Assembly (NCBI GenBank): GCA_026003395.1
Contig: BPHE01000009.1
Location: forward strand, 5,528 to 69,527
From: Vicingaceae bacterium
GTDB lineage: Bacteria > Bacteroidota > Bacteroidia > Flavobacteriales_E > Vicingaceae
DNA length: 64,000 nt
Reading direction: 5' to 3'
Shown: piece by piece, positions 15,453 to 35,717 of the stretch
Position numbering within the stretch: position 1 is the stretch's first letter
Layout of the letters: each line of letters begins with the position of its first letter
Made by a program: the position numbers and the translations under genes
Notes under the pieces: generated by a model
The model's database searches: none
Told to the model about the DNA's origin: nothing
What the model saw: only the letters and a program-made list of their open reading frames with translations

Positions 15453-18400
15453 TTAAGGGGTTATTTCTTTTTTTTCAACGTCTTTCCAAATATAAGCAAA
15501 TTTGGGGTCAATGACTATCTTGTCGGGTTTTTTGGGGCATATTAATTTGATAGAAGCGTGATTGTTTTGAATCATGATGGTTGATGAAGCTAAGGGTTCA
15601 CCATACATTTTTCCCTTTTTTTTCTCATAAGCGGTTATGGTGACCGGACCGGTTGCAACAAGACGTTCGGATTTTCCCAAGTCGGTGTTTTTGATGTTTT
15701 CTGTTAAAGAAATGTTTGTCAGATAAGAACTCTTGAAAAATTCTATGTTTAAATTAATTTCCCAGGTAGAATCAGCCTGGGGTTTGGCTTCTTTACTTTT
15801 GACGTCAAGGTCCCAAATGATAATTTTTTCGAGATGTTCTTGCACAAAAGGTTTGAGGGAATCGGGGCAAAGGTCATACAATCGTTTGGAGAACTCAAGA
15901 GAAGTGGGGTATGGTGGTTCTTGATAAGCAAATTTCTTGATTAATTGTTGCAATACATTGAACATTATTGCAGAACCTGTTTGATGTTGAATGGCATTGA
16001 GAGCCACGGCTGCTTTGTCATAATAAACATACGATTGTTGGTCTGTGGTCAATAAAGTCGGTTCTCTTTTGGTTTCATAAGCGCGTGAAGTGATATAATT
16101 ACGATTGGACCGACGCAAAAATTTCAGCAACATATCTTCACCAAATACTTTGGCAATGACATTGGAAGCCGAGAATTCGGCAAGTGATTCGGAAAGGAAA
16201 GGGGCTCCTTGCATTTTTGCTCCTACTACCTGGTGAGCCCACCATTGGTGAGCCATTTCGTGAGCAACCACATGAAAAATTCTATTGATGTCTTCTTGAT
16301 TGTCTTTGTAGTTTGATGTAAAACCGATACTTTCTGAATAGGGCATAGTGCCCGGAAATGCCTGTGCGAATGAAGAAAATTGTGGGAATTCAATGATACG
16401 GGCTTCATTGTGATAATATTTTCCGAGATGGTTGACGTAATAAGAGATGGAAGCTTTCAGGGCATCCATCATTTGAGGAACATTCCATTCATGGCCGGGG
16501 TGGTAGTAAATGGCCAGTTCAATATCATTTAAACGCTCTTTTTTAACAGCATACCTTGCGGACATTACATTAAAGAAGAACAAAGACGGTTGGTCAAGGC
16601 GGTATTCAAAATATGCCCGGTTTTTTGTGGTCCATCTTTTCACAAGCTTGCCGGGCGCAATGGCCATTTGGTCAGCGTAAGTGGAGATGACAAAATGCAT
16701 TTTGGCCCAGTCCGATTGTGTAACATAATTCCACATGCATTTTTGGGTGCAGTTTGTTTCCAAGGGAGGTAAATAAAATTGCTTTATTGACAATCCTTGT
16801 TTTTTTCTTTCGGTATTTTCTGCAATTTCATAACTTTCGTCATAACCAAAAGCCGGAGTAAACATACTGTAGTTTAAGAATGTGCCGTTTGGCATCAGGT
16901 ATGGATTAGAAAGTTCGTTTTCGATGCTCTCATAGATTTCTTTATAGCTATATTCAAACAACATACTGTCTCCTGGCATAAGTGGTTGTTTTAAACGGTA
17001 AATTTCAAATGAAACCAATTTTGAAGTGTCTTTGTGTATTAATGTTAAATTGTTGTTGATGATTTCAAACGGATGTTTCACAGGATTATTGATATACAAC
17101 TCCTCGATAGGTTCATTGAATTTATTTTTGAGATATAGCTTTGCTTTGACGAAATATTTTCTTTCTTTCCCAAACAGGTCAATGGCATAATCGGCATATA
17201 CAATTTTGGGCTGGGGTTTATCTTTATATTTTTGATAGTTTTTTTCATAAAAGGCACGCCAATATATTTCATCATCATAAGAAAGAAAACGATTTCTGAT
17301 ATTAACATGATAATGTAAAAATCCTGCATATCCGGTTACAATAATCAATGCGGTGGTGGGGAAAAGTTTGTATTGAGCAAAATGGTTCTTGATTATAAAA
17401 AGTTTGTCAAGGAAGGATATGTTTTTGTAACCTTCAAATATGACGATAGTGACATAAAATACAAAAGCATAAATCAGCATCCAATAAAACCAAAATGAAA
17501 TATATTGTGTCAAATAAGGACCATAGCCATAAAAATCGGAATAAATGATGTCCGGAAAAGTGGGTAAGATGCCGGCCATATTGGATTTGATGTGCAGGGA
17601 AGCTTTCAATACTGGTTGAAACGTAAGAATTAAAATCACTATTCCCATGGAAATGAACTTTTGCCCGGTCAATGCATGTAAGAAAAAAGACAAAATGATT
17701 AACGCAATGAAATCGGTGAATTTAAAAAAGAAAATTTCCGTAAAATATATTGAAAATTCAATAGGAGCTTCTCCTTTGAAAGTTTGATACAGGATACCGA
17801 ACAATAAAAAGAAAATACCGCAGAATATATAAAGCAACATCAATGAAAACAATTTGCCGGTAAGGATAACCGCAGGAGACACCGGCAAAGAATATTTGAT
17901 TTCGGAAAAGAAACTTGTTTTTTCACGCCAAAAGATTTCGGCCGACAAGTAGATAAAAAACAATTTTAAAATGAAAAAAACAAAGAAAATTATTTTCAGC
18001 GTGTAATAAGTTGTGGCATATCTTGGGGCTTCATCATCCTGAATCATTCCGATGAAATACATAAGATACATCAGAAAAATAATTCCGGTCATGAATATCA
18101 AAACATTGCTGCGCAGCATGTATTTTAGACCCAAAGAGGCCTCATTGGCCACTGCAGATAACATCCATGAAAATCCTCCGGTTATTTTTGAAAATCGAAT
18201 GGATTTATATTGAACTTGAATAAAAGACCGTATGGTTTTGCCGGAATCATTGCTGTCTGCTGTTTTTTTCGGAAGATTCCATCTGATTCTCTGTTTATAT
18301 ACGGCCATAAAAAATAAACCAATGCCCAATCCGCACCAAACAATCCTGTTAATTATAAATCTGGCGGTAGGCACGATCAAATAATGATTCATTTCATAAG

Positions 18401-19079
18401 CGGTCTGTTTATTCAGCAGTTCAAATAATGGAATCAATCCAAATGGGTCGGCAATGTCAATGAAAGAATGATCAATTAAATTATCGGACAACTGCAAAAA
18501 TGAAAAATAAAATGCCAGCATTCCGACGGCAATCAAGATGGAGTATTTGATATTTTTCAAAAAAGAGCCAAAGAAAAATAATATGCAACCGATGGCGATC
18601 AAGCTGGGCAAGACAATGATGGTCATACACCACAAATGATGGGTGAGATTAAAAGGGAGTAAAGAATCTTCGGAAGTCCAAGGAACCAAATGGGCCAAAA
18701 TATCTGCCAAGGGAATCGAGGCAAAAATCATTATGACCGGTAGGAATGCTCCCAAAAACCTTCCGCTAAAAAGCACAAATTTTGATACAGGATAGGTATA
18801 GATGATTTCATGAAACTTATATTCGTAGTCACGGGCCAGTGAAAATGCAATAAATTCATTTAAAATCAAAGGCAGGAATAATGAGATAAGAATGTAGAGG
18901 TTTGTCAATGAATAAGGGGCATTTTTGTATACAACTTCTGTTACATTGCCAATTCGAATGGTTTCTATGCTGAAAATCAACAATGCAAAGAGCATGATAA
19001 CAGAAAAATAAACATATACAGATGGTTTTTTAAACCAATACTTCCATTCGAAAGGTAATATGGAAACAATTTGTTTCAT
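15453..19079 (-). CDS. ABC-2-type transporter permease fused to M1-family zinc peptidase domain
   Basis: 1208 aa. The N-terminal ~600 aa is polytopic membrane. The C-terminal part has HEMAHQWW (about 16240-16263 on the plus strand) and a downstream LSESLAEF glutamate. Immediately downstream of the ABC ATPase gene. Confidence 0.85.
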   Translation of the reverse strand: MKQIVSILPFEWKYWFKKPSVYVYFSVIMLFALLIFSIETIRIGNVTEVVYKNAPYSLTNLYILISLFLPLILNEFIAFSLARDYEYKFHEIIYTYPVSKFVLFSGRFLGAFLPVIMIFASIPLADILAHLVPWTSEDSLLPFNLTHHLWCMTIIVLPSLIAIGCILFFFGSFLKNIKYSILIAVGMLAFYFSFLQLSDNLIDHSFIDIADPFGLIPLFELLNKQTAYEMNHYLIVPTARFIINRIVWCGLGIGLFFMAVYKQRIRWNLPKKTADSNDSGKTIRSFIQVQYKSIRFSKITGGFSWMLSAVANEASLGLKYMLRSNVLIFMTGIIFLMYLMYFIGMIQDDEAPRYATTYYTLKIIFFVFFILKLFFIYLSAEIFWREKTSFFSEIKYSLPVSPAVILTGKLFSLMLLYIFCGIFFLLFGILYQTFKGEAPIEFSIYFTEIFFFKFTDFIALIILSFFLHALTGQKFISMGIVILILTFQPVLKASLHIKSNMAGILPTFPDIIYSDFYGYGPYLTQYISFWFYWMLIYAFVFYVTIVIFEGYKNISFLDKLFIIKNHFAQYKLFPTTALIIVTGYAGFLHYHVNIRNRFLSYDDEIYWRAFYEKNYQKYKDKPQPKIVYADYAIDLFGKERKYFVKAKLYLKNKFNEPIEELYINNPVKHPFEIINNNLTLIHKDTSKLVSFEIYRLKQPLMPGDSMLFEYSYKEIYESIENELSNPYLMPNGTFLNYSMFTPAFGYDESYEIAENTERKKQGLSIKQFYLPPLETNCTQKCMWNYVTQSDWAKMHFVISTYADQMAIAPGKLVKRWTTKNRAYFEYRLDQPSLFFFNVMSARYAVKKERLNDIELAIYYHPGHEWNVPQMMDALKASISYYVNHLGKYYHNEARIIEFPQFSSFAQAFPGTMPYSESIGFTSNYKDNQEDINRIFHVVAHEMAHQWWAHQVVGAKMQGAPFLSESLAEFSASNVIAKVFGEDMLLKFLRRSNRNYITSRAYETKREPTLLTTDQQSYVYYDKAAVALNAIQHQTGSAIMFNVLQQLIKKFAYQEPPYPTSLEFSKRLYDLCPDSLKPFVQEHLEKIIIWDLDVKSKEAKPQADSTWEINLNIEFFKSSYLTNISLTENIKNTDLGKSERLVATGPVTITAYEKKKGKMYGEPLASSTIMIQNNHASIKLICPKKPDKIVIDPKFAYIWKDVEKKEITP

Positions 19080-19085
19080 CGTATT

Positions 19086-19952
19086 TTATTCATTTACATT
19101 ACACATATAGAAAAAAACATCTTCCAAATCGGGCTGTTTCGGCTTAAAATCTTTGCCGGGAAAATCTTCGGAAAAAATACTGATAAAATGTTGCCCGTAT
19201 TTTAGCTTATAAGACAGTATGTTGTATTGTTCAGACAAAGATTGAATTTCCGAACTTTCCACTTGTTTTTCGTAAACTTTGTTTTCTATTAACTTTAAGG
19301 CATCTGCCGGAGAACCTTCAAATTTTACCCGGCCTTTGTGCAAAACTGCCATTTTGTTGCATAAATCCGAAATATCCTGGACGATATGGGTCGAAAATAA
19401 AACTATCCTTTCTTTAGCCACATCAGCCAGAATGTTTTGAAAACGGTTTCTTTCGGTTGGGTCTAAGCCGGCAGTAGGTTCGTCAACAATCAATATTTTT
19501 GGGTCGCCCATTAATGCTTGTGCAATGCCAAACCGTTGACGCATACCTCCGGAAAAATCATACACATATCTGTTGCGATGTTCATACAAATTTACCATAT
19601 GCAACAACTGCCCGGCGATTTCCCTTCTTTTGTTTACAATTCCTTTCAAAACGGCAATGTGTGTAAGGAGTTCGATAGCAGTAGTTTTAGGATAAACACC
19701 AAATTCTTGTGGTAGATATCCGAGAATCGATTTGATTTTCCATGGTTTGTCGGTAACATTCTCGTCGTTCAAATATATTTCACCGCTGTCCGGGGCAATA
19801 AGTGTGCTTAAAATCCTCATCAATGTAGATTTTCCGGCACCATTGGGACCTAAAAGTCCAAACATTCCCGTGGTGAGTGTCAGCGAAACATTGTCTAATG
19901 CTTTTAAATTGTTTTGATAAGTTTTGCTGATTTGTTTAATTTCCAATTTCAT
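19086..19952 (-). CDS. ABC transporter ATP-binding protein
   Basis: Walker A GPNGAGKST, signature FSGGMRQR, Walker B ILIVDEPTAGLD. Confidence 0.9.
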   Translation of the reverse strand: MKLEIKQISKTYQNNLKALDNVSLTLTTGMFGLLGPNGAGKSTLMRILSTLIAPDSGEIYLNDENVTDKPWKIKSILGYLPQEFGVYPKTTAIELLTHIAVLKGIVNKRREIAGQLLHMVNLYEHRNRYVYDFSGGMRQRFGIAQALMGDPKILIVDEPTAGLDPTERNRFQNILADVAKERIVLFSTHIVQDISDLCNKMAVLHKGRVKFEGSPADALKLIENKVYEKQVESSEIQSLSEQYNILSYKLKYGQHFISIFSEDFPGKDFKPKQPDLEDVFFYMCNVNE

Positions 19953-20156
19953 GGGAAAAATTTTTATATTCTATAACATATTTATTTTAAATAGGATACA
20001 TGCCCACATGTAGGGCGCGAAAATAAAAAAAAACAGTTTAAAAACCATGTTTTATGGTTAAATCATAAAAAAAACTTAGATTATGCATTTTTAACAATAC
20101 ATTGGCAGGCAATTCGGATAAATCTAAAATAAATTTTAATAATTTTCGCCCTCAAT

Positions 20157-21218
20157 ATGACAACAGAAGCAACTGATTTCAGGAAAATATTTTCGGGGAA
20201 AAGGATTTTTTTGGCTGTTTTTATCGGTTTGTTGGCATCATCTTATCTTGCGTATGATGGGCTAAGCAAAACTGACTGGAATGGCTATGATTGGTCGGGA
20301 ATGTCGCTATGGTCGTTATTGGTGGCGATATTGTTGATGATATTGCGTGATCTTGCCTATATGCTTAGAATAAGAGTCCTGACAGACGGAAAATTGTCCT
20401 GGAGACAGGCATTTGATGTGGTGATGTTATGGGAATTTGCCTCGTCGCTCACACCCAGCGTGGTGGGAGGATCGGGTTTTGCCATTTTTATCTTAAATCA
20501 GGAAAAAATTCCACTTGGAAAAAGCACGGCAATTGTCATGGTTACTGCTTTTTTGGACGAATTGTTTTATGTCATCATGGTGCCTTTGGTGTTGATTTTC
20601 ACCGGCACGCAAGAGCTTTTCCCTCTTAGTTTGCAAAAACAAATCTTAGGAGTGGAATTTGGCAGCAAGCAATTGTTTTATGTTGGTTATGCGTTTATTT
20701 TGATATTGATAGGTGTGATTTTTTATGGTTTGTTTATTCGTCCGAAAGTCGTAAAATATTGGTTGGTCAAAATTTTTTCATTCAGGTTGCTCAGAAAATG
20801 GAGATATAAAGCACTCGAAACAGCCAATAATTTAATTATTACATCCATAGTATTGAAAGGAAAAAATTTTGGTTTCTGGTTGAAGGCGTTTTTTTATACC
20901 ATTCTTTCATGGTCGGCACGTTTCTGGGTTGTAAACTTTATATTACAGGCCTTCAATCCTTCGTTAAACATAGCCGATCATCTGTTGATTTATGCACGCC
21001 AATTGGTGATGTGGGTCATTTTGTTGATAAGTCCAACTCCCGGCGGAGCCGGAGTTGCCGAGATTTCTTTTTCGGGATTTCTGGAACAATTTACTCCTGA
21101 TGGTTTTGCTGCACTTCAAGCCACTTTATGGAGGGTTTTGAGCTATTATCCGTATATATTGATAGGAAGTATTTTGTTGCCCATCTGGTTAAGACGGGTG
21201 TTGGAACGTAAAAAATAA
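20157..21218 (+). CDS. flippase-like / lysylphosphatidylglycerol-synthase TM-region family membrane protein (UPF0104)
   Basis: 353 aa, about 8 TM segments. Conserved PTPGGAGVAE motif near the C-terminal third. Confidence 0.75.
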   Translation: MTTEATDFRKIFSGKRIFLAVFIGLLASSYLAYDGLSKTDWNGYDWSGMSLWSLLVAILLMILRDLAYMLRIRVLTDGKLSWRQAFDVVMLWEFASSLTPSVVGGSGFAIFILNQEKIPLGKSTAIVMVTAFLDELFYVIMVPLVLIFTGTQELFPLSLQKQILGVEFGSKQLFYVGYAFILILIGVIFYGLFIRPKVVKYWLVKIFSFRLLRKWRYKALETANNLIITSIVLKGKNFGFWLKAFFYTILSWSARFWVVNFILQAFNPSLNIADHLLIYARQLVMWVILLISPTPGGAGVAEISFSGFLEQFTPDGFAALQATLWRVLSYYPYILIGSILLPIWLRRVLERKK

Positions 21219-21247
21219 AAGCCCTTGAAATCAAGGGCTTTTATTGT
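21217..21247. terminator. bidirectional intrinsic terminator-like hairpin
   Basis: aaaagcccttgaaatcaagggctttt between convergent genes. A-run upstream and T-run downstream. Confidence 0.5.
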
Positions 21248-21307
21248 CTTGAGTTTTTTGAAATTTTCAAAAAATCAATATAAGCATGTGTTCGTTTGAG
21301 ACAATTT

Positions 21308-22402
21308 TTAGAAGTATCCACGAATGGTTATCCTGAAATTTCTTCCCGGGGCAGATATTCCCGAGGCAAAATGCCGGTAATTTTGATCAAGTATATTTTC
21401 TAAAGCTAATTGAATTTCGATGATTTTATTCAAATGGTAACCTGCGCGGGCATTGACGGTTATCCAGGCAGGCGTACCCCAAGGGGTGGCTTTGGATAAA
21501 TTGTCTTCACCAAACATGTTATAATCTTTCAAGCGTTTCCATCCGTTATAAATAAAAAAGATTTCACCTTTGAATTTATTTTTGTTGAGTCTAAAAGAGG
21601 TCATTCCGTATACAGGAGGAATATGATCGAGAGGGTAAGGGGTCGAGTCGGTTTTTATCCTTCCGTAAGTATAAGTTAAAGTGCTGCGTATGGAGAAATT
21701 TTCTGTAACATTTGCCTGCATAGAGGCCTGAAGGCCATAAATGAAAGCATTGAGGGCATTCTGGTTTGCCACAATCCGGCTCCAACGCCCGTCATAAAAT
21801 ATGGAATCCTGTCCGTTGAAAGTATAGGGAGCAGTGGTGATAAGATTATCATAATAGGTATAATAGGCGGTAGCTTCAAGGTATGTTTTTTCGATTTCGC
21901 GGCCTATGGTCAAATCTGCTGTGTAGGTATATTCGGGTTTTATGTTCGGGTTGGGCACAATCAAGAGTCCGGGCACCGATTCAAAAACCTTTCCAAGGTC
22001 ATCCACGTTTGGCGATCGAAATCCTGTGTTACCGGTCAAAGCAAATTTCCATTTGCCGGGAAGCCAGGTTACTCCAAGCATGCCACTTGGTGCATGATTT
22101 ACTTGATTTACAACATCAAATGGAAATGGGAAAAAGTTTTTGCTTTTGAATATAGATTTCAATTCAATGTAGTTATAACGGGATCCGGCATGAAGAGTCA
22201 GTATGTCATTGAATTTATAAGCATAATTCAAATAAATGGCAGCACTGTACCAATCGCTTCCTCCATCCGGATAACGGGTGTCCAACGAATCGGTTTCGCC
22301 CGTGATAATTATGTTGGTTGTCGTGGGCTTTAGACCAAACCTTATTGTAAACACCTTCGAGTCCGTAAAAAATTTTGTGTTTCTTGATTTTTTTGCTGAA
22401 AT
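21308..22402 (-). pseudogene. TonB-dependent receptor, C-terminal fragment (duplicate of 26319-27409; no signal peptide or plug)
   Basis: Protein from TGETDSLDTRYPDGG to the C-terminal F is identical to 26319-28724. Upstream of that, an indel patch (22310-22326) shifts the frame, and the gene is cut at the duplication joint. Confidence 0.8.
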
Positions 22403-24090
22403 ATTATAAAAAGTTTGTCAAGGAAGGATATGTTTTTGTAACCTTCAAATATGACGATAGTGACATAAAATACAAAAGCATAAATCAGCATCCAATAAAA
22501 CCAAAATGAAATATATTGTGTCAAATAAGGACCATAGCCATAAAAATCGGAATAAATGATGTCCGGAAAAGTGGGTAAGATGCCGGCCATATTGGATTTG
22601 ATGTGCAGGGAAGCTTTCAATACTGGTTGAAACGTAAGAATTAAAATCACTATTCCCATGGAAATGAACTTTTGCCCGGTCAATGCATGTAAGAAAAAAG
22701 ACAAAATGATTAACGCAATGAAATCGGTGAATTTAAAAAAGAAAATTTCCGTAAAATATATTGAAAATTCAATAGGAGCTTCTCCTTTGAAAGTTTGATA
22801 CAGGATACCGAACAATAAAAAGAAAATACCGCAGAATATATAAAGCAACATCAATGAAAACAATTTGCCGGTAAGGATAACCGCAGGAGACACCGGCAAA
22901 GAATATTTGATTTCGGAAAAGAAACTTGTTTTTTCACGCCAAAAGATTTCGGCCGACAAGTAGATAAAAAACAATTTTAAAATGAAAAAAACAAAGAAAA
23001 TTATTTTCAGCGTGTAATAAGTTGTGGCATATCTTGGGGCTTCATCATCCTGAATCATTCCGATGAAATACATAAGATACATCAGAAAAATAATTCCGGT
23101 CATGAATATCAAAACATTGCTGCGCAGCATGTATTTTAGACCCAAAGAGGCCTCATTGGCCACTGCAGATAACATCCATGAAAATCCTCCGGTTATTTTT
23201 GAAAATCGAATGGATTTATATTGAACTTGAATAAAAGACCGTATGGTTTTGCCGGAATCATTGCTGTCTGCTGTTTTTTTCGGAAGATTCCATCTGATTC
23301 TCTGTTTATATACGGCCATAAAAAATAAACCAATGCCCAATCCGCACCAAACAATCCTGTTAATTATAAATCTGGCGGTAGGCACGATCAAATAATGATT
23401 CATTTCATAAGCGGTCTGTTTATTCAGCAGTTCAAATAATGGAATCAATCCAAATGGGTCGGCAATGTCAATGAAAGAATGATCAATTAAATTATCGGAC
23501 AACTGCAAAAATGAAAAATAAAATGCCAGCATTCCGACGGCAATCAAGATGGAGTATTTGATATTTTTCAAAAAAGAGCCAAAGAAAAATAATATGCAAC
23601 CGATGGCGATCAAGCTGGGCAAGACAATGATGGTCATACACCACAAATGATGGGTGAGATTAAAAGGGAGTAAAGAATCTTCGGAAGTCCAAGGAACCAA
23701 ATGGGCCAAAATATCTGCCAAGGGAATCGAGGCAAAAATCATTATGACCGGTAGGAATGCTCCCAAAAACCTTCCGCTAAAAAGCACAAATTTTGATACA
23801 GGATAGGTATAGATGATTTCATGAAACTTATATTCGTAGTCACGGGCCAGTGAAAATGCAATAAATTCATTTAAAATCAAAGGCAGGAATAATGAGATAA
23901 GAATGTAGAGGTTTGTCAATGAATAAGGGGCATTTTTGTATACAACTTCTGTTACATTGCCAATTCGAATGGTTTCTATGCTGAAAATCAACAATGCAAA
24001 GAGCATGATAACAGAAAAATAAACATATACAGATGGTTTTTTAAACCAATACTTCCATTCGAAAGGTAATATGGAAACAATTTGTTTCAT
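22342..24090 (-). CDS. truncated duplicate of the ABC-2 permease (TM region only, M1 domain lost), chimeric 3' end
   Basis: First 570 aa identical to 15453-19079. After the joint it reads out of frame into the TonB-receptor fragment for 19 codons (FQQKNQETQNFLRTRRCLQ*). Confidence 0.6.
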   Translation of the reverse strand: MKQIVSILPFEWKYWFKKPSVYVYFSVIMLFALLIFSIETIRIGNVTEVVYKNAPYSLTNLYILISLFLPLILNEFIAFSLARDYEYKFHEIIYTYPVSKFVLFSGRFLGAFLPVIMIFASIPLADILAHLVPWTSEDSLLPFNLTHHLWCMTIIVLPSLIAIGCILFFFGSFLKNIKYSILIAVGMLAFYFSFLQLSDNLIDHSFIDIADPFGLIPLFELLNKQTAYEMNHYLIVPTARFIINRIVWCGLGIGLFFMAVYKQRIRWNLPKKTADSNDSGKTIRSFIQVQYKSIRFSKITGGFSWMLSAVANEASLGLKYMLRSNVLIFMTGIIFLMYLMYFIGMIQDDEAPRYATTYYTLKIIFFVFFILKLFFIYLSAEIFWREKTSFFSEIKYSLPVSPAVILTGKLFSLMLLYIFCGIFFLLFGILYQTFKGEAPIEFSIYFTEIFFFKFTDFIALIILSFFLHALTGQKFISMGIVILILTFQPVLKASLHIKSNMAGILPTFPDIIYSDFYGYGPYLTQYISFWFYWMLIYAFVFYVTIVIFEGYKNISFLDKLFIIFQQKNQETQNFLRTRRCLQ

Positions 24091-24096
24091 CGTATT

Positions 24097-24963
24097 TTAT
24101 TCATTTACATTACACATATAGAAAAAAACATCTTCCAAATCGGGCTGTTTCGGCTTAAAATCTTTGCCGGGAAAATCTTCGGAAAAAATACTGATAAAAT
24201 GTTGCCCGTATTTTAGCTTATAAGACAGTATGTTGTATTGTTCAGACAAAGATTGAATTTCCGAACTTTCCACTTGTTTTTCGTAAACTTTGTTTTCTAT
24301 TAACTTTAAGGCATCTGCCGGAGAACCTTCAAATTTTACCCGGCCTTTGTGCAAAACTGCCATTTTGTTGCATAAATCCGAAATATCCTGGACGATATGG
24401 GTCGAAAATAAAACTATCCTTTCTTTAGCCACATCAGCCAGAATGTTTTGAAAACGGTTTCTTTCGGTTGGGTCTAAGCCGGCAGTAGGTTCGTCAACAA
24501 TCAATATTTTTGGGTCGCCCATTAATGCTTGTGCAATGCCAAACCGTTGACGCATACCTCCGGAAAAATCATACACATATCTGTTGCGATGTTCATACAA
24601 ATTTACCATATGCAACAACTGCCCGGCGATTTCCCTTCTTTTGTTTACAATTCCTTTCAAAACGGCAATGTGTGTAAGGAGTTCGATAGCAGTAGTTTTA
24701 GGATAAACACCAAATTCTTGTGGTAGATATCCGAGAATCGATTTGATTTTCCATGGTTTGTCGGTAACATTCTCGTCGTTCAAATATATTTCACCGCTGT
24801 CCGGGGCAATAAGTGTGCTTAAAATCCTCATCAATGTAGATTTTCCGGCACCATTGGGACCTAAAAGTCCAAACATTCCCGTGGTGAGTGTCAGCGAAAC
24901 ATTGTCTAATGCTTTTAAATTGTTTTGATAAGTTTTGCTGATTTGTTTAATTTCCAATTTCAT
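24097..24963 (-). CDS. ABC transporter ATP-binding protein (duplicate copy)
   Basis: 288 aa, identical to 19086-19952. Confidence 0.85.
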   Translation of the reverse strand: MKLEIKQISKTYQNNLKALDNVSLTLTTGMFGLLGPNGAGKSTLMRILSTLIAPDSGEIYLNDENVTDKPWKIKSILGYLPQEFGVYPKTTAIELLTHIAVLKGIVNKRREIAGQLLHMVNLYEHRNRYVYDFSGGMRQRFGIAQALMGDPKILIVDEPTAGLDPTERNRFQNILADVAKERIVLFSTHIVQDISDLCNKMAVLHKGRVKFEGSPADALKLIENKVYEKQVESSEIQSLSEQYNILSYKLKYGQHFISIFSEDFPGKDFKPKQPDLEDVFFYMCNVNE

Positions 24964-25167
24964 GGGAAAAATTTTTATATTCTATAACATATTTATTTTA
25001 AATAGGATACATGCCCACATGTAGGGCGCGAAAATAAAAAAAAACAGTTTAAAAACCATGTTTTATGGTTAAATCATAAAAAAAACTTAGATTATGCATT
25101 TTTAACAATACATTGGCAGGCAATTCGGATAAATCTAAAATAAATTTTAATAATTTTCGCCCTCAAT

Positions 25168-26229
25168 ATGACAACAGAAGCAACTGATTTCAGGAAAATA
25201 TTTTCGGGGAAAAGGATATTTTTGGCTGTTTTTATCGGTTTGTTGGCATCATCTTATCTTGCGTATGATGGGCTAAGCAAAACTGACTGGAATGGCTATG
25301 ATTGGTCGGGAATGTCGCTATGGTCGTTATTGGTGGCGATATTGTTGATGATATTGCGTGATCTTGCCTATATGCTTAGAATAAGAGTCCTGACAGACGG
25401 AAAATTGTCCTGGAGACAGGCATTTGATGTGGTGATGTTATGGGAATTTGCCTCGTCGCTCACACCCAGCGTGGTGGGAGGATCGGGTTTTGCCATTTTT
25501 ATCTTAAATCAGGAAAAAATTCCACTTGGAAAAAGCACGGCAATTGTCATGGTTACGGCTTTTCTAGATGAATTGTTTTATGTCATCATGGTGCCTTTGG
25601 TGTTGATTTTCACCGGCACGCAAGAGCTTTTCCCTCTTAGTTTGCAAAAACAAATCTTAGGAGTGGAATTTGGCAGCAAGCAATTGTTTTATGTTGGTTA
25701 TGCGTTTATTTTGATATTGATAGGTGTGATTTTTTATGGTTTGTTTATTCGTCCGAAAGTCGTAAAATATTGGTTGGTCAAAATTTTTTCATTCAGGTTG
25801 CTCAGAAAATGGAGATATAAAGCACTCGAAACAGCCAATAATTTAATTATTACATCCATAGTATTGAAAGGAAAAAATTTTGGTTTCTGGTTGAAGGCGT
25901 TTTTTTATACCATTCTTTCATGGTCGGCACGTTTCTGGGTTGTAAACTTTATATTACAGGCCTTCAATCCTTCGTTAAACATAGCCGATCATCTGTTGAT
26001 TTATGCACGCCAATTGGTGATGTGGGTCATTTTGTTGATAAGTCCAACTCCCGGCGGAGCCGGAGTTGCCGAGATTTCTTTTTCGGGATTTCTGGAACAA
26101 TTTACTCCTGATGGTTTTGCTGCACTTCAAGCCACTTTATGGAGGGTTTTGAGCTATTATCCGTATATATTGATAGGAAGTATTTTGTTGCCCATCTGGT
26201 TAAGACGGGTGTTGGAACGTAAAAAATAA
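25168..26229 (+). CDS. flippase-like / UPF0104 membrane protein (duplicate copy)
   Basis: 353 aa, identical to 20157-21218. Five synonymous nucleotide differences. Confidence 0.75.
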   Translation: MTTEATDFRKIFSGKRIFLAVFIGLLASSYLAYDGLSKTDWNGYDWSGMSLWSLLVAILLMILRDLAYMLRIRVLTDGKLSWRQAFDVVMLWEFASSLTPSVVGGSGFAIFILNQEKIPLGKSTAIVMVTAFLDELFYVIMVPLVLIFTGTQELFPLSLQKQILGVEFGSKQLFYVGYAFILILIGVIFYGLFIRPKVVKYWLVKIFSFRLLRKWRYKALETANNLIITSIVLKGKNFGFWLKAFFYTILSWSARFWVVNFILQAFNPSLNIADHLLIYARQLVMWVILLISPTPGGAGVAEISFSGFLEQFTPDGFAALQATLWRVLSYYPYILIGSILLPIWLRRVLERKK

Positions 26230-26258
26230 AAGCCCTTGAAATCAAGGGCTTTTATTGT
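26228..26258. terminator. bidirectional terminator-like hairpin (duplicate)
   Basis: Same hairpin as 21217-21247. Confidence 0.5.
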
Positions 26259-26318
26259 CTTGAGTTTTTTGAAATTTTCAAAAAATCAATATAAGCATGT
26301 GTTCGTTTGAGACAATTT

Positions 26319-28724
26319 TTAGAAGTATCCACGAATGGTTATCCTGAAATTTCTTCCCGGGGCAGATATTCCCGAGGCAAAATGCCGGTAATTTTGATCA
26401 AGTATATTTTCTAAAGCTAATTGAATTTCGATGATTTTATTCAAATGGTAACCTGCGCGGGCATTGACGGTTATCCAGGCAGGCGTACCCCAAGGGGTGG
26501 CTTTGGATAAATTGTCTTCACCAAACATGTTATAATCTTTCAAGCGTTTCCATCCGTTATAAATAAAAAAGATTTCACCTTTGAATTTATTTTTGTTGAG
26601 TCTAAAAGAGGTCATTCCGTATACAGGAGGAATATGATCGAGAGGGTAAGGGGTCGAGTCGGTTTTTATCCTTCCGTAAGTATAAGTTAAAGTGCTGCGT
26701 ATGGAGAAATTTTCTGTAACATTTGCCTGCATAGAGGCCTGAAGGCCATAAATGAAAGCATTGAGGGCATTCTGGTTTGCCACAATCCGGCTCCAACGCC
26801 CGTCATAAAATATGGAATCCTGTCCGTTGAAAGTATAGGGAGCAGTGGTGATAAGATTATCATAATAGGTATAATAGGCGGTAGCTTCAAGGTATGTTTT
26901 TTCGATTTCGCGGCCTATGGTCAAATCTGCTGTGTAGGTATATTCGGGTTTTATGTTCGGGTTGGGCACAATCAAGAGTCCGGGCACCGATTCAAAAACC
27001 TTTCCAAGGTCATCCACGTTTGGCGATCGAAATCCTGTGTTACCGGTCAAAGCAAATTTCCATTTGCCGGGAAGCCAGGTTACTCCAAGCATGCCACTTG
27101 GTGCATGATTTACTTGATTTACAACATCAAATGGAAATGGGAAAAAGTTTTTGCTTTTGAATATAGATTTCAATTCAATGTAGTTATAACGGGATCCGGC
27201 ATGAAGAGTCAGTATGTCATTGAATTTATAAGCATAATTCAAATAAATGGCAGCACTGTACCAATCGCTTCCTCCATCGGGATAACGGGTATCCAATGAA
27301 TCGGTTTCGCCCGTGATAATATTGGTTGTATGAGCTTTAGACCAAACCTTATTGTAAACACCTTCGAGTCCGTAAAAAATTTTGTGTTTCTTGATTTTTT
27401 TGCTGAAATCTGCATTTAGCGCATAAACTTCAACATTTTCAATTCTGCTCTGAAGTTTAAGATTGTTTAAACGTCTTGTGTGACGGCTTTCTTCTATGTT
27501 TTGAAACGAAGTGGTAAGGGTGGCTTTATCCCACCATTTACCTTGTGTGTGTTCCAATTTATAGTATGTTAAGAGGCGTTTTTGCGGCCCATAATACCAT
27601 TCTGCATATCTGGGTAATCCTCCGGATGTTTGTTGCAGACGGTCGTATCTTGGGATGTTGCTTGATGTGGAATATTGGAAATTAAAGGTATGAGTGATGT
27701 TTGCGCTTTGTTTCCACATAATTTTTTGAAGCAGGTCATATTGTTTGTATCCGGACCCAACCTGTAGGTTTGGATTATTGTTTACAAAAACCGAATCTTT
27801 TCCTTCAATGGTTTTAACGTAAAAATTCCTGTACCAATCGGTGCCTAATGCATAGTTTCGATTGTTTCCTTGCATCAGGTCTCCAAAATCGGAATAAGTG
27901 AAGGAGGAAATCCAACCAAATTTATTGTTGGCAATCGAAAAGTCAATATGCCCGGTTTTCTCCTCGTTGGCGGTTGAATACCTGGTATAAGCACTTCCTT
28001 TGGTAATCCATTTTGAATCATTGGAAAATACTGGGTTTTTGGTTTGAAAAACCATCACTCCCCCCAACGCATCGCTTCCATATATTACCGATCCCGGGCC
28101 AAAGATTACTTCTGCCGATTGAAGCATGTTCGGATCAATCGTGATGACATTTTGTAAATGGCCTGAACGGTAAATGGCATTGTTCATTCTGATACCATCA
28201 ATCACCAACAACACACGGCTGGCTTCAAAACCTCTCAAAACGGGGCTGCCTCCGCCTTGTTGGGATTTCTGCACAAATACATCTCCGGTGTAGATTAACA
28301 TATCGGCCGTTGTTTGCGGGTTGTAAAAATTTATTTCTTCAGCTTCGATTTTTCTTATTTTTAAAGGGGACTCTTTTAAAGTTAGGGAATCGCGTTTGGG
28401 CGATATGACAAATGCTTCAAGATTGTAAACCTTTTCGTTTAACAAGATTTTAAAATTATTTTTCTCCAAATCTTCGTATGATACTGTAGCGGTAAAATAA
28501 GACAAATGTTTAATTTTGATTTGATCGCCTTTTTTCAGGCCAGTTAAGGTTATTTTACCTTTGTTGTCGGTGCTTCCTTGTAATACTTCATTAACATACA
28601 CATAAGCACCTGCCACAGGTTGCAGCGTGGCATTGTCCAATACGTTTATTTCTTGCCCAAAAGAGAATCCGGCAATAAAAACAAAAATACAAAACAATAT
28701 ATGGTTAAAATTTAATTTTTTCAT
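26319..28724 (-). CDS. TonB-dependent receptor with N-terminal carboxypeptidase-regulatory-like domain
   Basis: 801 aa. Signal peptide. Plug motifs (GGGSPVLRGFEASRVLLVIDGIRMNNA, GSDALGGVMVF). C-terminal aromatic residue (RGYF). Confidence 0.9.
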   Translation of the reverse strand: MKKLNFNHILFCIFVFIAGFSFGQEINVLDNATLQPVAGAYVYVNEVLQGSTDNKGKITLTGLKKGDQIKIKHLSYFTATVSYEDLEKNNFKILLNEKVYNLEAFVISPKRDSLTLKESPLKIRKIEAEEINFYNPQTTADMLIYTGDVFVQKSQQGGGSPVLRGFEASRVLLVIDGIRMNNAIYRSGHLQNVITIDPNMLQSAEVIFGPGSVIYGSDALGGVMVFQTKNPVFSNDSKWITKGSAYTRYSTANEEKTGHIDFSIANNKFGWISSFTYSDFGDLMQGNNRNYALGTDWYRNFYVKTIEGKDSVFVNNNPNLQVGSGYKQYDLLQKIMWKQSANITHTFNFQYSTSSNIPRYDRLQQTSGGLPRYAEWYYGPQKRLLTYYKLEHTQGKWWDKATLTTSFQNIEESRHTRRLNNLKLQSRIENVEVYALNADFSKKIKKHKIFYGLEGVYNKVWSKAHTTNIITGETDSLDTRYPDGGSDWYSAAIYLNYAYKFNDILTLHAGSRYNYIELKSIFKSKNFFPFPFDVVNQVNHAPSGMLGVTWLPGKWKFALTGNTGFRSPNVDDLGKVFESVPGLLIVPNPNIKPEYTYTADLTIGREIEKTYLEATAYYTYYDNLITTAPYTFNGQDSIFYDGRWSRIVANQNALNAFIYGLQASMQANVTENFSIRSTLTYTYGRIKTDSTPYPLDHIPPVYGMTSFRLNKNKFKGEIFFIYNGWKRLKDYNMFGEDNLSKATPWGTPAWITVNARAGYHLNKIIEIQLALENILDQNYRHFASGISAPGRNFRITIRGYF

Positions 28725-28937: not shown

Positions 28938-29357
28938 TCAGACAACCAAAAAATTTCTGCGAAATTTTTTTGGCGCAACCGGATCAGACGGTAAGGACTG
29001 TTTGGTATCGTGCTGTAAAAGTTTTTTGAAATAATCTGTCAATGCTTTTTCTTTCTTATCCTCCAAACAAACGATTCGTATAAACTTTCCATCCTTGATG
29101 ATTTTGACTACATCATACATTTTACCGTCAAAACGGAATTCTTTGCCTTTTTCCTCCCAGGCAATGCGATTGAATTGATGAATGGAAAATATCAAACTTT
29201 TGGTTTCCCTGTGTGTTTTTCCAAATTTAACGGATTGTTGGAAGTTGTACCGCAGATATTTCCTTTGAATCCATAACAATCCCTCAAATCTCAGGTAGAA
29301 AAACAACAAGGCAGGAATGGAGATGGATAGAAGGAAGTATTTTTTGTATGATATCAT
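28938..29357 (-). CDS. hypothetical membrane-anchored protein
   Basis: ORF with one N-terminal TM segment. The ATG at 29357 is preferred over the TTG at 29375 in the ORF track. Sits 4 nt after the kbl stop. Confidence 0.45.
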   Translation of the reverse strand: MISYKKYFLLSISIPALLFFYLRFEGLLWIQRKYLRYNFQQSVKFGKTHRETKSLIFSIHQFNRIAWEEKGKEFRFDGKMYDVVKIIKDGKFIRIVCLEDKKEKALTDYFKKLLQHDTKQSLPSDPVAPKKFRRNFLVV

Positions 29358-32470: not shown

Positions 32471-33079
32471 TCAAATGAGGCATAGCGGTTTTGCTGGTCT
32501 TGGGTGAGTTGATCCATGATGTTTTTGCAATTCCATCTGTTTTTGCATAATTTTTTGAGACACTTCCATGTATTTTTGAATGGCTGAAGTATCTCCTTTA
32601 TCGATAAAGTCGTCAACATAATTTTCAAACTCATCCATCAACCTGTCAATGTCATTCAAAACAGCATCTATTTTATTAAATGCCCCTTGAATGTTGTTGT
32701 TGTTTTCTCCACATTGATAGGTGGCATCGCCAAAAGCCAGCATAGGGAAAAATATTACTGGAAGGAATATCAGGCCAATGGTAAATCCCACACTTTTGCC
32801 GAAGCATTTTGATAAATTATGATAAACAATTATGGCAACGATGATATTAACAATAGGAATAAAAAACAGAAGAATCCACCAAACCGGTTTTTTGACTATT
32901 TGCAGAAGTACCACCATGTTGTAAATGGGAACAATGGAAGCCCATCCGGGTTTACCGGCTTTTTCAAAAATTTTCCAATTAGACACGATCATTAATCCGG
33001 CTACGAATAACAAGAAAATTAATTGTGGCAAAGGCAACGAAGCTCCTGCTTCATTTAACAGAATAAATAATGTTTTCAT
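32471..33079 (-). CDS. DUF5684-like small membrane protein (C-terminal tail possibly frameshifted; alternative end at 32431)
   Basis: TM-rich N-terminal half with the KIFEKAGKPGWASIVPIYN motif that I associate with DUF5684. See the finding on the tail. Confidence 0.55.
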   Translation of the reverse strand: MKTLFILLNEAGASLPLPQLIFLLFVAGLMIVSNWKIFEKAGKPGWASIVPIYNMVVLLQIVKKPVWWILLFFIPIVNIIVAIIVYHNLSKCFGKSVGFTIGLIFLPVIFFPMLAFGDATYQCGENNNNIQGAFNKIDAVLNDIDRLMDEFENYVDDFIDKGDTSAIQKYMEVSQKIMQKQMELQKHHGSTHPRPAKPLCLI

Positions 33080-33293
33080 AACAATTTGATTTTAAATTAT
33101 TTTACAAGGATATAAAAAAACTTTTAAATAAAAAAATTTAAAATTTTACACACCATATTTATTTTGTAAAAATTCAAATAATACAATGCTTGAGGAAGAG
33201 GAGATTTTTTATGAGGGAGAATTTTTTTGCCCGGCAGTTCTTCACGTCTTTTACTACCTTTCGCGGTCATGCTCCCATATCTTGAAGAGGCCA

Positions 33294-35717
33294 CTACCGC
33301 ACATTTGCCTGAAAATTGATTTTATAGTAAAAAAGGGGTAAAAAGCCCAATTGATAGTTGAGTTTGATGGGAGGTCTGTCTGTGCCTTGCACCGGCGCAA
33401 ATGTGTAGTTTAATATGTTTCTCCGGTTGGTGACATTGATCAGGTCTATGCCTATCTCGTGGGAAGCTTTGGGATTATTTACCAGGAAATTTATTTTAAA
33501 ATCCAATCTTAAATAAGGCGGAAATTGAAATTGGTTATATAAGCTGTCACTGAAAATGATTTCGCGTTCGGCAAAAGTTCTCAAAGTGTCGATGATTCCG
33601 TATCTACGGCTGCCGGCATAAGTAAACTTCGTGCCTATGTTCAATGTGCTTTTTTTTCCAGCTTTAAAAGTTTTGCCTGCCAAAAAATTGAAAATATACC
33701 TACCATTGAAGTCGGTGTTTCTCCATTTTCCGTCACTTGCTTTATATTTTGAATCATAGAGGGTAAGCGTAGACATTAAAAAATATTTGCCATACACAAA
33801 TTTTTCGAATGTAAATTCTACTCCCGTATTGTATCCTGTGCCTTTGTTTGTCAGTTCCGAAGGGAAAAACCTGCTGAAACTGCTGCCTTGATTTACCAAA
33901 GAAAATGCAGAAGGTTTCACTTCAACCGGAATATCGAAAAGATATTGATAATAAATTTCGGCTCTGAATCTGAACTTGCCCTGATAGGTATATCCTACCA
34001 CGTTGTGATGGCTTTTCATAGGTCCCACGTGTTGATTGATGATTCTCCGCCTGCCGCTGCTGTCGGGCTGAAGGTAAAAATACACATAAAAAGGAATGAT
34101 TTGTGAGTGCAAACCCATTCCGGCTGAAAGCATGTGTTTGGAATTTATTTTGAATTGCCAACCCACACGAGGTTCCGGAAACGAATAAGTGCTGTTGTAG
34201 CCAAAATATAATCCATGCAGGCCGAAGGTTATATCTTGTTTTTCATTGATGGAATGCAGTGCCTGTATGTAGGGTTGAACAATATAGGTGTTTTTGTTGG
34301 TATTCCATCTGACTTCCCAATGGGGCGGTGTTTCATAAAACTGACTGTCGTTGAAAAGTAATTGATAAAACTCTGCCACTACACCGGCTTTAATCCACCA
34401 ACGGGCAGCCGGACGGTAACTTGCATAGGCATGATCGGCTATTTTATTTTGTGTAAAATGAAAATAGAGATAATCATACACACTATCGATGACAAACATG
34501 CCATTGTTATCGACATGCCGGGCAATGTATTGGTGAAAGGCGTGCTGGTTTTCGTGTGAGATGGCCAGGGTGTTTTTAAACAACCATTTTTCGTTTACCG
34601 GATGGGTATACACAGCTCCGATTGTAGCCATGCGTGTGCCAAAGTATTGGTCCCGGTCATTTTGTCCGTAAAGATCTATCTCCGAAGTATCTTTTTGTCG
34701 GCTGATCACAATGTCTATATCGCTTTTGCCGGCAAGTCCGAAGACAGATATTGATTTACCGTCGTTTAAAGGGAAATTCAATTTGAAATTAAGATCCTGG
34801 TAACGTGGAACGGCATTGGTGCCAATGTCGATGCCTGCACCGCTGAAAAGGGCAAGGGTCGAATAACGGTAGGCCGCAAGATATGATGATTTTTGTTTTT
34901 TGATGGGCCCTTCAGCGGCGAGCTCTGTTCCCAGAAAACCAAATTGCGTGGTAAACTCGTGTTTTTCATTGTTGCCATTGCGGAGCTTCAGATCAAACAC
35001 AGCGGCAATGGCATTGCCAAATTCGGCAGGAAATGCCCCGGAATAAAAGTCCGAGTTGGCCAATGTTTTGTTATTGATGATGGTTACGGGCCCGCCTGTG
35101 CTGCCCGATACGGCAAAGTGGTTCGGATTGGGAATGGGTATGCCCTCCACTCTCCATAAAACGCCCAGAGGCGAATTTCCTCTCACCACGATATCGTTTC
35201 GGCTGTCGTCTGCGCCTTGAACTCCCGCATAATTTGCCACCATTCTTGCAGGATCAAAACGGCTGCCGACATACAACTCCGATTCTTCCACCGAGAATGT
35301 GCGGGCACTGACCACGGCCATCGGGTCGTTGCTCTGTATGCCTCTTTCTGCGGTAACTTCCACACTTTCCAATGCAATTGCCGAGGGCTGCAATGAAAAT
35401 TGCAACATCCTGTCTTTCCCTGCATTGACCTGTATGCCGTATTCAATATGTGTCTGGTATCCGATAAACGAAACAGAAATTTTGTATATGCCCGGATACA
35501 CATTGTCTATTTTGAACTGTCCGTTTTCGTCAGACGAAACGCATTTGACAAGGGTGGTATCTTTCAATAAGCAAACGTTGGCAAAAGGCAATGGTTGTTG
35601 GGTGGCTGCTTCTGTCACACGTCCTTTGATGGATTGTTGTGCCAAAACCCAAAACGGAAATAAAAATAAAACACTCAAAAATGCTGATGTAATTTTCTGT
35701 ATTGTAAACATGGTCAA
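33294..35717 (-). CDS. TonB-dependent receptor with carboxypeptidase-regulatory-like N-terminal domain
   Basis: 807 aa. Signal peptide, then GRVTEAATQQPLPFANV... (CarbopepD_reg-like), then IVVRGNSPLGVLWRVEGIPIPNPNHF and a long beta-barrel-like region. Confidence 0.85.
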   Translation of the reverse strand: MTMFTIQKITSAFLSVLFLFPFWVLAQQSIKGRVTEAATQQPLPFANVCLLKDTTLVKCVSSDENGQFKIDNVYPGIYKISVSFIGYQTHIEYGIQVNAGKDRMLQFSLQPSAIALESVEVTAERGIQSNDPMAVVSARTFSVEESELYVGSRFDPARMVANYAGVQGADDSRNDIVVRGNSPLGVLWRVEGIPIPNPNHFAVSGSTGGPVTIINNKTLANSDFYSGAFPAEFGNAIAAVFDLKLRNGNNEKHEFTTQFGFLGTELAAEGPIKKQKSSYLAAYRYSTLALFSGAGIDIGTNAVPRYQDLNFKLNFPLNDGKSISVFGLAGKSDIDIVISRQKDTSEIDLYGQNDRDQYFGTRMATIGAVYTHPVNEKWLFKNTLAISHENQHAFHQYIARHVDNNGMFVIDSVYDYLYFHFTQNKIADHAYASYRPAARWWIKAGVVAEFYQLLFNDSQFYETPPHWEVRWNTNKNTYIVQPYIQALHSINEKQDITFGLHGLYFGYNSTYSFPEPRVGWQFKINSKHMLSAGMGLHSQIIPFYVYFYLQPDSSGRRRIINQHVGPMKSHHNVVGYTYQGKFRFRAEIYYQYLFDIPVEVKPSAFSLVNQGSSFSRFFPSELTNKGTGYNTGVEFTFEKFVYGKYFLMSTLTLYDSKYKASDGKWRNTDFNGRYIFNFLAGKTFKAGKKSTLNIGTKFTYAGSRRYGIIDTLRTFAEREIIFSDSLYNQFQFPPYLRLDFKINFLVNNPKASHEIGIDLINVTNRRNILNYTFAPVQGTDRPPIKLNYQLGFLPLFYYKINFQANVR

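Follow-up and report, generated by a model that had tools for sequence, protein, structure and literature searches.

Two near-identical copies of a 5-kb sequence stand head to tail in the window (the whole 64,000-nucleotide stretch of DNA analysed here), and the substitutions that separate them appear to be silent. Are these copies young paralogues, or are they two versions of a single locus? The original prediction was that the units derive from two alleles, either joined by recombination or merged by an assembler. Alignment of the units directly reveals their anatomy. They lie on the same contig and abut exactly:

17392 to 22402, unstranded: repeat unit 1 (copy 1), 5011 nt.
22403 to 27409, unstranded: repeat unit 2 (copy 2), 5007 nt.
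22402/22403, unstranded: the joint, GCTGAAAT on the left and ATTATAAAAAG on the right, blunt.

The joint lies mid-gene, with receptor DNA on one side and a permease-peptidase gene on the other. In its single-copy form, the locus has the order permease-M1 peptidase, ABC ATPase, LPG_synthase_TM-like gene, TonB receptor. The duplication leaves the following genes and fragments in and around the units:

15453 to 19079, minus strand: intact gene whose product is a membrane protein of 1208 aa carrying an M1 peptidase domain at its C terminus; codons 1-562 are within unit 1.
19086 to 19952, minus strand: ABC transporter ATPase, copy 1, 288 aa.
24097 to 24963: ABC transporter ATPase, copy 2, identical to copy 1.
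20157 to 21218, plus strand: PF03706 LPG_synthase_TM-family gene, copy 1, 353 aa (called "flippase-like" in the original prediction).
25168 to 26229: PF03706 gene, copy 2, encoding a protein identical to that of copy 1.
21308 to 22402, minus strand: headless C-terminal fragment of a TonB-dependent receptor, with the ORF listed as 21308 to 22354 and frameshifted at 22322.
26319 to 28724, minus strand: intact TonB-dependent receptor, 801 aa, with CarboxypepD_reg, Plug and beta-barrel domains.
22342 to 24090, minus strand: chimeric ORF of 582 aa, in which codons 1-562 of the 1208-aa gene (copy 2) are followed, past the joint, by 20 codons that are out of frame.

The repeat unit holds the last ~360 codons of the 801-aa receptor. 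A Pfam search gave no match to any domain in the 582-aa chimeric ORF. The 1208-aa gene is found at full length in the sister lineage (contigs L018 and L057, and cluster members on at least nine contigs), showing that the fusion of a membrane domain to an M1 peptidase is real and not made by the assembly.

We compared the two units without gaps at an offset of 5011. Between 17392 and 22309 there are only eight mismatches (20207, 20546, 20553, 20555, 20558, 22268, 22280 and 22286), precisely those that had been picked out by eye. The ungapped match collapses at 22310 solely through small insertions, and gapped homology extends to 22402. Within 22308 to 22326, the gapped alignment contains three further substitutions (AAC/AAT, CAC/CAT and GCC/GCT), all of them in the third position and silent under the most parsimonious alignment. 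Copy 1 also has two insertions in this stretch: one of 3 nt, which adds an Ile codon, and one of 1 nt, which shifts the frame (22322). All differences between the copies therefore fall in one isolated site and two patches:

20207, plus strand: singleton silent SNP, ATT (copy 1) versus ATA (copy 2, 25218), both Ile; copy 2 is derived and copy 1 matches all relatives.
20546 to 20558, plus strand: patch B, four silent substitutions in 13 nt of the PF03706 gene; partner 25557 to 25569; copy 1 is derived.
22268 to 22326, minus strand: patch C, six third-position substitutions with the 3-nt and 1-nt insertions, in the headless receptor fragment; partner 27279 to 27333; copy 1 is derived.

In patch B, the codons of copy 1 and copy 2 are ACT/ACG (Thr), TTG/CTA (Leu, two sites) and GAC/GAT (Asp). 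The three receptor-fragment changes known beforehand, read in the frame of the TonB receptor, are CCG/CCC (Pro), GAC/GAT (Asp) and TCG/TCA (Ser), all silent as had been claimed. The distance from patch C to the joint, where copy 1 ends, is 77-135 nt. The claim that every substitution is synonymous thus held for the eight listed sites and for all eleven once the three missed ones were included. The full alignment turned up no non-synonymous substitution. It did add the patch at 22308-22326, which had been overlooked, and the two insertions there, neither of which is silent.

The silent bias is extreme. A random substitution in these genes is computed to be synonymous with a probability of 0.22-0.28, so that the chance of eight silent changes out of eight is ~5e-6 to 4e-5, and that of eleven out of eleven is <2e-6. 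The differences are also tightly clustered, as had been noted: four substitutions fall in 13 nt and six in 59 nt, and 8 of the 10 gaps between neighbours are 27 nt or shorter. Clustering of this kind was seen in none of 2 million random placements (analytic estimate ~5e-9). Silence at all eleven sites, including those in the headless fragment, on which selection cannot act, compared with 22-28% expected at random, supports the proposal that the differences are allelic and arose under purifying selection and not by drift after duplication. However, the copies are identical apart from the two micro-patches and one SNP, so they are not two evenly diverged alleles.

One reading of these differences is that one of the copies contains errors of sequencing, consensus calling or polishing; under this reading the duplication itself could be either true or false. 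The assembly does contain single-base frameshift errors. Single extra bases, mostly in base runs, cause +1 frameshifts at 28974, 30890, 31120 and 32522, and these break a 177-aa gene, a 585-aa repeat protein (split in three frames) and a DUF5684 gene. Since all of these ORFs are intact in relatives (L047, L048 and L057), the consensus of this assembly is error-prone. In addition, the copies of two other duplications in the assembly, on contigs C3 and C6 (see below), differ mostly by indels in base runs, and an error could easily account for the extra base at 22322. Errors, however, ignore codon position, which is hard to square with eleven silent substitutions out of eleven, and there is no common motif that would suggest systematic base-calling error. 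We therefore regard this reading as scarcely probable. Inspection of the aligned sequences revealed no shared sequence motif around the substitutions. Two more specific candidates, a diversity-generating retroelement and systematic base-calling error at methylation motifs, were both rejected on the grounds that the changes are silent third-position changes with no shared motif.

We used related sequences to polarize the differences. The locus is single copy in all 12 independent sister-lineage contigs, which comprise L018 (from a metagenome, 96-97% identical) and 11 contigs from independent sequencing runs. At both patches, all 12 agree with copy 2; at 20207 they agree with copy 1. From these states, the two insertions and all but one of the 11 derived substitutions fall to copy 1 (unit 1), while copy 2 (unit 2) has one derived SNP, at 25218. 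The extra Ile codon of copy 1 is absent from all seven related members of the 90% protein cluster and from 16 receptor homologues at ~50% identity. No carrier of the copy-1 patch variants was found in the genome itself, the 12 relatives, the 90% cluster or the protein collection, and neither patch has a match longer than 15 nt elsewhere in the genome. Receptor identity falls from 95% to ~52% at the next cluster, with no intermediate lineage in the collection.

Two further features of the related contigs were observed. Ten short-read sister contigs (L047-L056) all start within a few bases of one another at ~20060, in an intergenic A run between 19952 and 20157 and 90-99 nt upstream of the PF03706 gene; this shared start is a recurrent assembly break at an A-rich intergenic stretch. 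Separately, the intergenic region 33079-33294 differs from L018 by five indels within 120 nt (33090-33205), a far higher density than in the coding flanks.

The polarity of the differences bears on a second reading, in which the tandem duplication is real and homologous recombination with a strongly diverged relative, itself unsampled, later brought two micro-imports of 13 nt and ~59 nt into copy 1. The imported changes would already have been filtered by selection in the donor. Very short imports after transformation have been described for Helicobacter and pneumococcus. The clustering and silence of the substitutions fit this reading, as does the concentration of 10 of 11 derived states in one copy; with the patch template absent elsewhere in the genome, the donor would be external. 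However, beyond the 95% cluster the closest receptor cluster reaches just ~52% identity, which leaves no plausible known donor lineage, and a 13-nt tract with perfectly identical borders requires a donor too diverged for efficient recombination. Furthermore, the joint lacks microhomology and is found in no other assembly, and a 2.5-Mb genome with at least five distinct perfect duplications (2.3-6.9 kb) in addition to unmerged overlaps points to the assembler. We consider micro-imports into a real duplicate unlikely. If they did occur, recombination works in very short tracts on a newly formed duplicate, its dead gene fragment included.

Three other donors were rejected. Ectopic conversion from a paralogue in the same genome is not compatible with the lack of any match of more than 15 nt to either patch elsewhere. 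The sister lineage is not the donor, as its 12 contigs all have the copy-2 state at both patches. A moderately diverged donor is likewise rejected: none exists in the collection, where identity drops from 95% to 52%, and no homologue has the extra residue.

Comparison of the breakpoints at 22402/22403 showed 0 nt of microhomology, and the joint has no flanking repeat. There are also no Ns at this joint, in contrast to the scaffold-gap joins of the same assembly. We looked up the protein clusters of the ORFs that depend on the joint (the 582-aa chimera and a 348-aa fragment) in the public collection; these ORFs occur on this contig only, while the corresponding intact genes occur on many contigs. 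The exact sequence of the LPG_synthase_TM-family protein was likewise found by cluster look-up in its own record only.

Self-comparison of the whole assembly (33 contigs, 2.54 Mb, 300 N) showed that this duplication has company. There are at least five head-to-tail duplications of 2.3-6.9 kb with at least 99.7% identity, and overlapping contig ends were left unmerged:

C3, 165277 to 170290 and 170291 to 175306: exact head-to-tail duplication, 5.0 kb, with a blunt, mid-gene joint.
C6, 78845 to 85716 and 85717 to 92596: exact head-to-tail duplication, 6.9 kb, with a blunt, mid-gene joint.
C1, 1/5268: near-adjacent duplication.
C2, 4578/7300: near-adjacent duplication.
C14/C18, C7/C16, C3/C22, C4/C20, C11/C26, C5/C28 and C19/C27: seven unmerged dovetail overlaps of contig ends, 1.5-17 kb, 99.4-100% identity.

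The copies within the C3 and C6 duplications differ mostly by single-base indels in base runs, plus substitutions outside ORFs, and the two regions (C3 165277-175306 and C6 78845-92596) are probably false duplications as well. At the 100-N gap at C1 237477, the same 385 nt is found on both sides with 100% identity, showing that overlapping pieces were placed end to end in this assembly. An overlap is also seen at the N gap at C3 10710; it lies inside a 155-nt tandem array, is ambiguous, and was not counted as clean evidence. Merging the seven dovetail overlaps would connect many of the 33 contigs. Multi-copy direct repeats are also present at C14:65-14459 and C17:5074-16391 (periods of ~3.0/6.0 kb and 4.5 kb, 94-98% identity). 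With greater divergence than the false duplications show, these may be real repeated genes.

The assembly also contains evidence of a second strain. Contig C32 (9.8 kb) shares both of its ends with C6 68001-79838 (98.65% and 100% identity), while its middle 5.8 kb is unrelated to the 7.9 kb of C6, and divergence climbs towards the edge of the island. This is a strain-variable island assembled twice. As C32 is an alternative haplotype of C6 68001-79838, at least two strains are present in the bin. The C6 duplication begins 25 nt from the boundary between the C32 and C6 haplotypes. In the other redundant pieces of the assembly, the differences are clustered and enriched for silent changes (44 silent versus 38 non-silent; P = 3e-8 against an expectation of 0.25); these differences are allelic and not errors.

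The presence of a second strain is relevant to a third reading, in which a real duplication formed between two strains and the copies differed by strain alleles from the start. This could have happened, for example, by a single crossover with a circularised 5-kb fragment of a near-identical strain or by unequal crossover with incoming DNA. Such an event would account for silent-only differences from the moment of duplication, and the second strain is there in the sample. However, it presupposes an illegitimate circularisation with a blunt joint, the assembly-wide redundancy points to the assembler, and the C3 and C6 duplications, which have the same geometry and differ only by indels and non-ORF substitutions, are left unexplained. 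We therefore consider a duplication between strains very unlikely.

Our data instead favor the interpretation that the 5-kb tandem duplication was made by the assembly and is false, its copies being two strain haplotypes of one single-copy locus; we think this quite likely. It is favored because unmerged duplications and overlaps are numerous in an error-prone assembly, a second strain is present, the joint ORFs are unique and the relatives are single copy. It is further favored by a joint without microhomology and by the position of patch C near the end of copy 1 (compare PMC9516828). Thus, between the two routes originally put forward, merging by an assembler is preferred over recombination, given the redundancy, the alternative haplotype in C32, a joint confined to this contig and 12 single-copy relatives.

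The source would be an uncultured Bacteroidia population with more than one strain. Two overlapping sequences of the single-copy locus would have been concatenated head to tail instead of being merged, so that the two "copies" would be two consensus sequences of one locus. Copy 2 would represent the common haplotype, and copy 1 a minor haplotype at the two micro-patches. The copy-1 patches would then be genuine allelic variation on which purifying selection had already acted while the genes were intact, and this would explain why the patch changes are silent even in the apparently dead receptor fragment. Patch C, next to the end of copy 1, probably blocked recognition of the overlap. The anatomy of the units, the bias towards silent changes, the single-copy locus of the relatives, the assembly-wide redundancy and the second strain are observed directly, and from them we infer both the artificial origin of the joint at 22402/22403 and the pipeline step behind it.

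Several observations run against a false duplication. The joint is free of Ns, which the scaffold-gap joins are not. Neither the added Ile codon nor the frameshift resembles a functional allele; the 1-nt insertion, and perhaps the 3-nt insertion too, may be a consensus error. In addition, silence at 11 of 11 sites exceeds the 54% silent differences in the other redundancies of this assembly (P ~1e-3). Since no sequence with the copy-1 patch variants was found, it is solely the silent pattern that points to the existence of a minor haplotype.

The structure that holds the silent differences is most likely not biological, and its significance is mainly one of quality control. About 75 kb (about 3%) of the draft genome is false redundancy. 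From this redundancy come false gene copies, the 582-aa chimera and a TonB receptor that looks "truncated". It also inflates paralogue counts and contamination estimates, and it would mislead studies of gene duplication and pseudogenes. A silent-only pattern is a cheap signal, available without reads, by which allelic versions of a single locus can be told from young paralogues when an assembly contains near-identical copies.

The locus resembles several known systems in part. Like a genuine bacterial tandem duplication mediated by repeats or microhomology, it is arranged head to tail with one novel joint, and it keeps both boundary genes intact while adding one chimeric ORF and one headless fragment. 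Unlike such duplications, it has no flanking repeat and 0 nt of microhomology, is absent from 12 related contigs, and is one of many in a draft. As in short-tract recombination imports between close bacterial strains, there are dense, mostly silent clusters in otherwise identical sequence; the tracts here differ in being 13 and 59 nt long and in having no known donor sequence. Short-tract recombination may be the source of the patches in the minor haplotype, and is not an explanation of the duplication. In assemblies of diploid vertebrates, local divergence between haplotypes gives rise to false heterotype duplications (Ko et al. 2022, Genome Biol 23:205, PMC9516828). The present case, probably their counterpart in a bacterial metagenome, differs from them in that the haplotypes belong to co-occurring bacterial strains in a metagenome bin and that the joint has no N gap. 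The following traits are shared (PMC9516828): two haplotypes of one locus stand side by side like paralogues, each copy carries haplotype-specific variants, local haplotype divergence is the trigger, and false gene gains and truncated gene models are the result.
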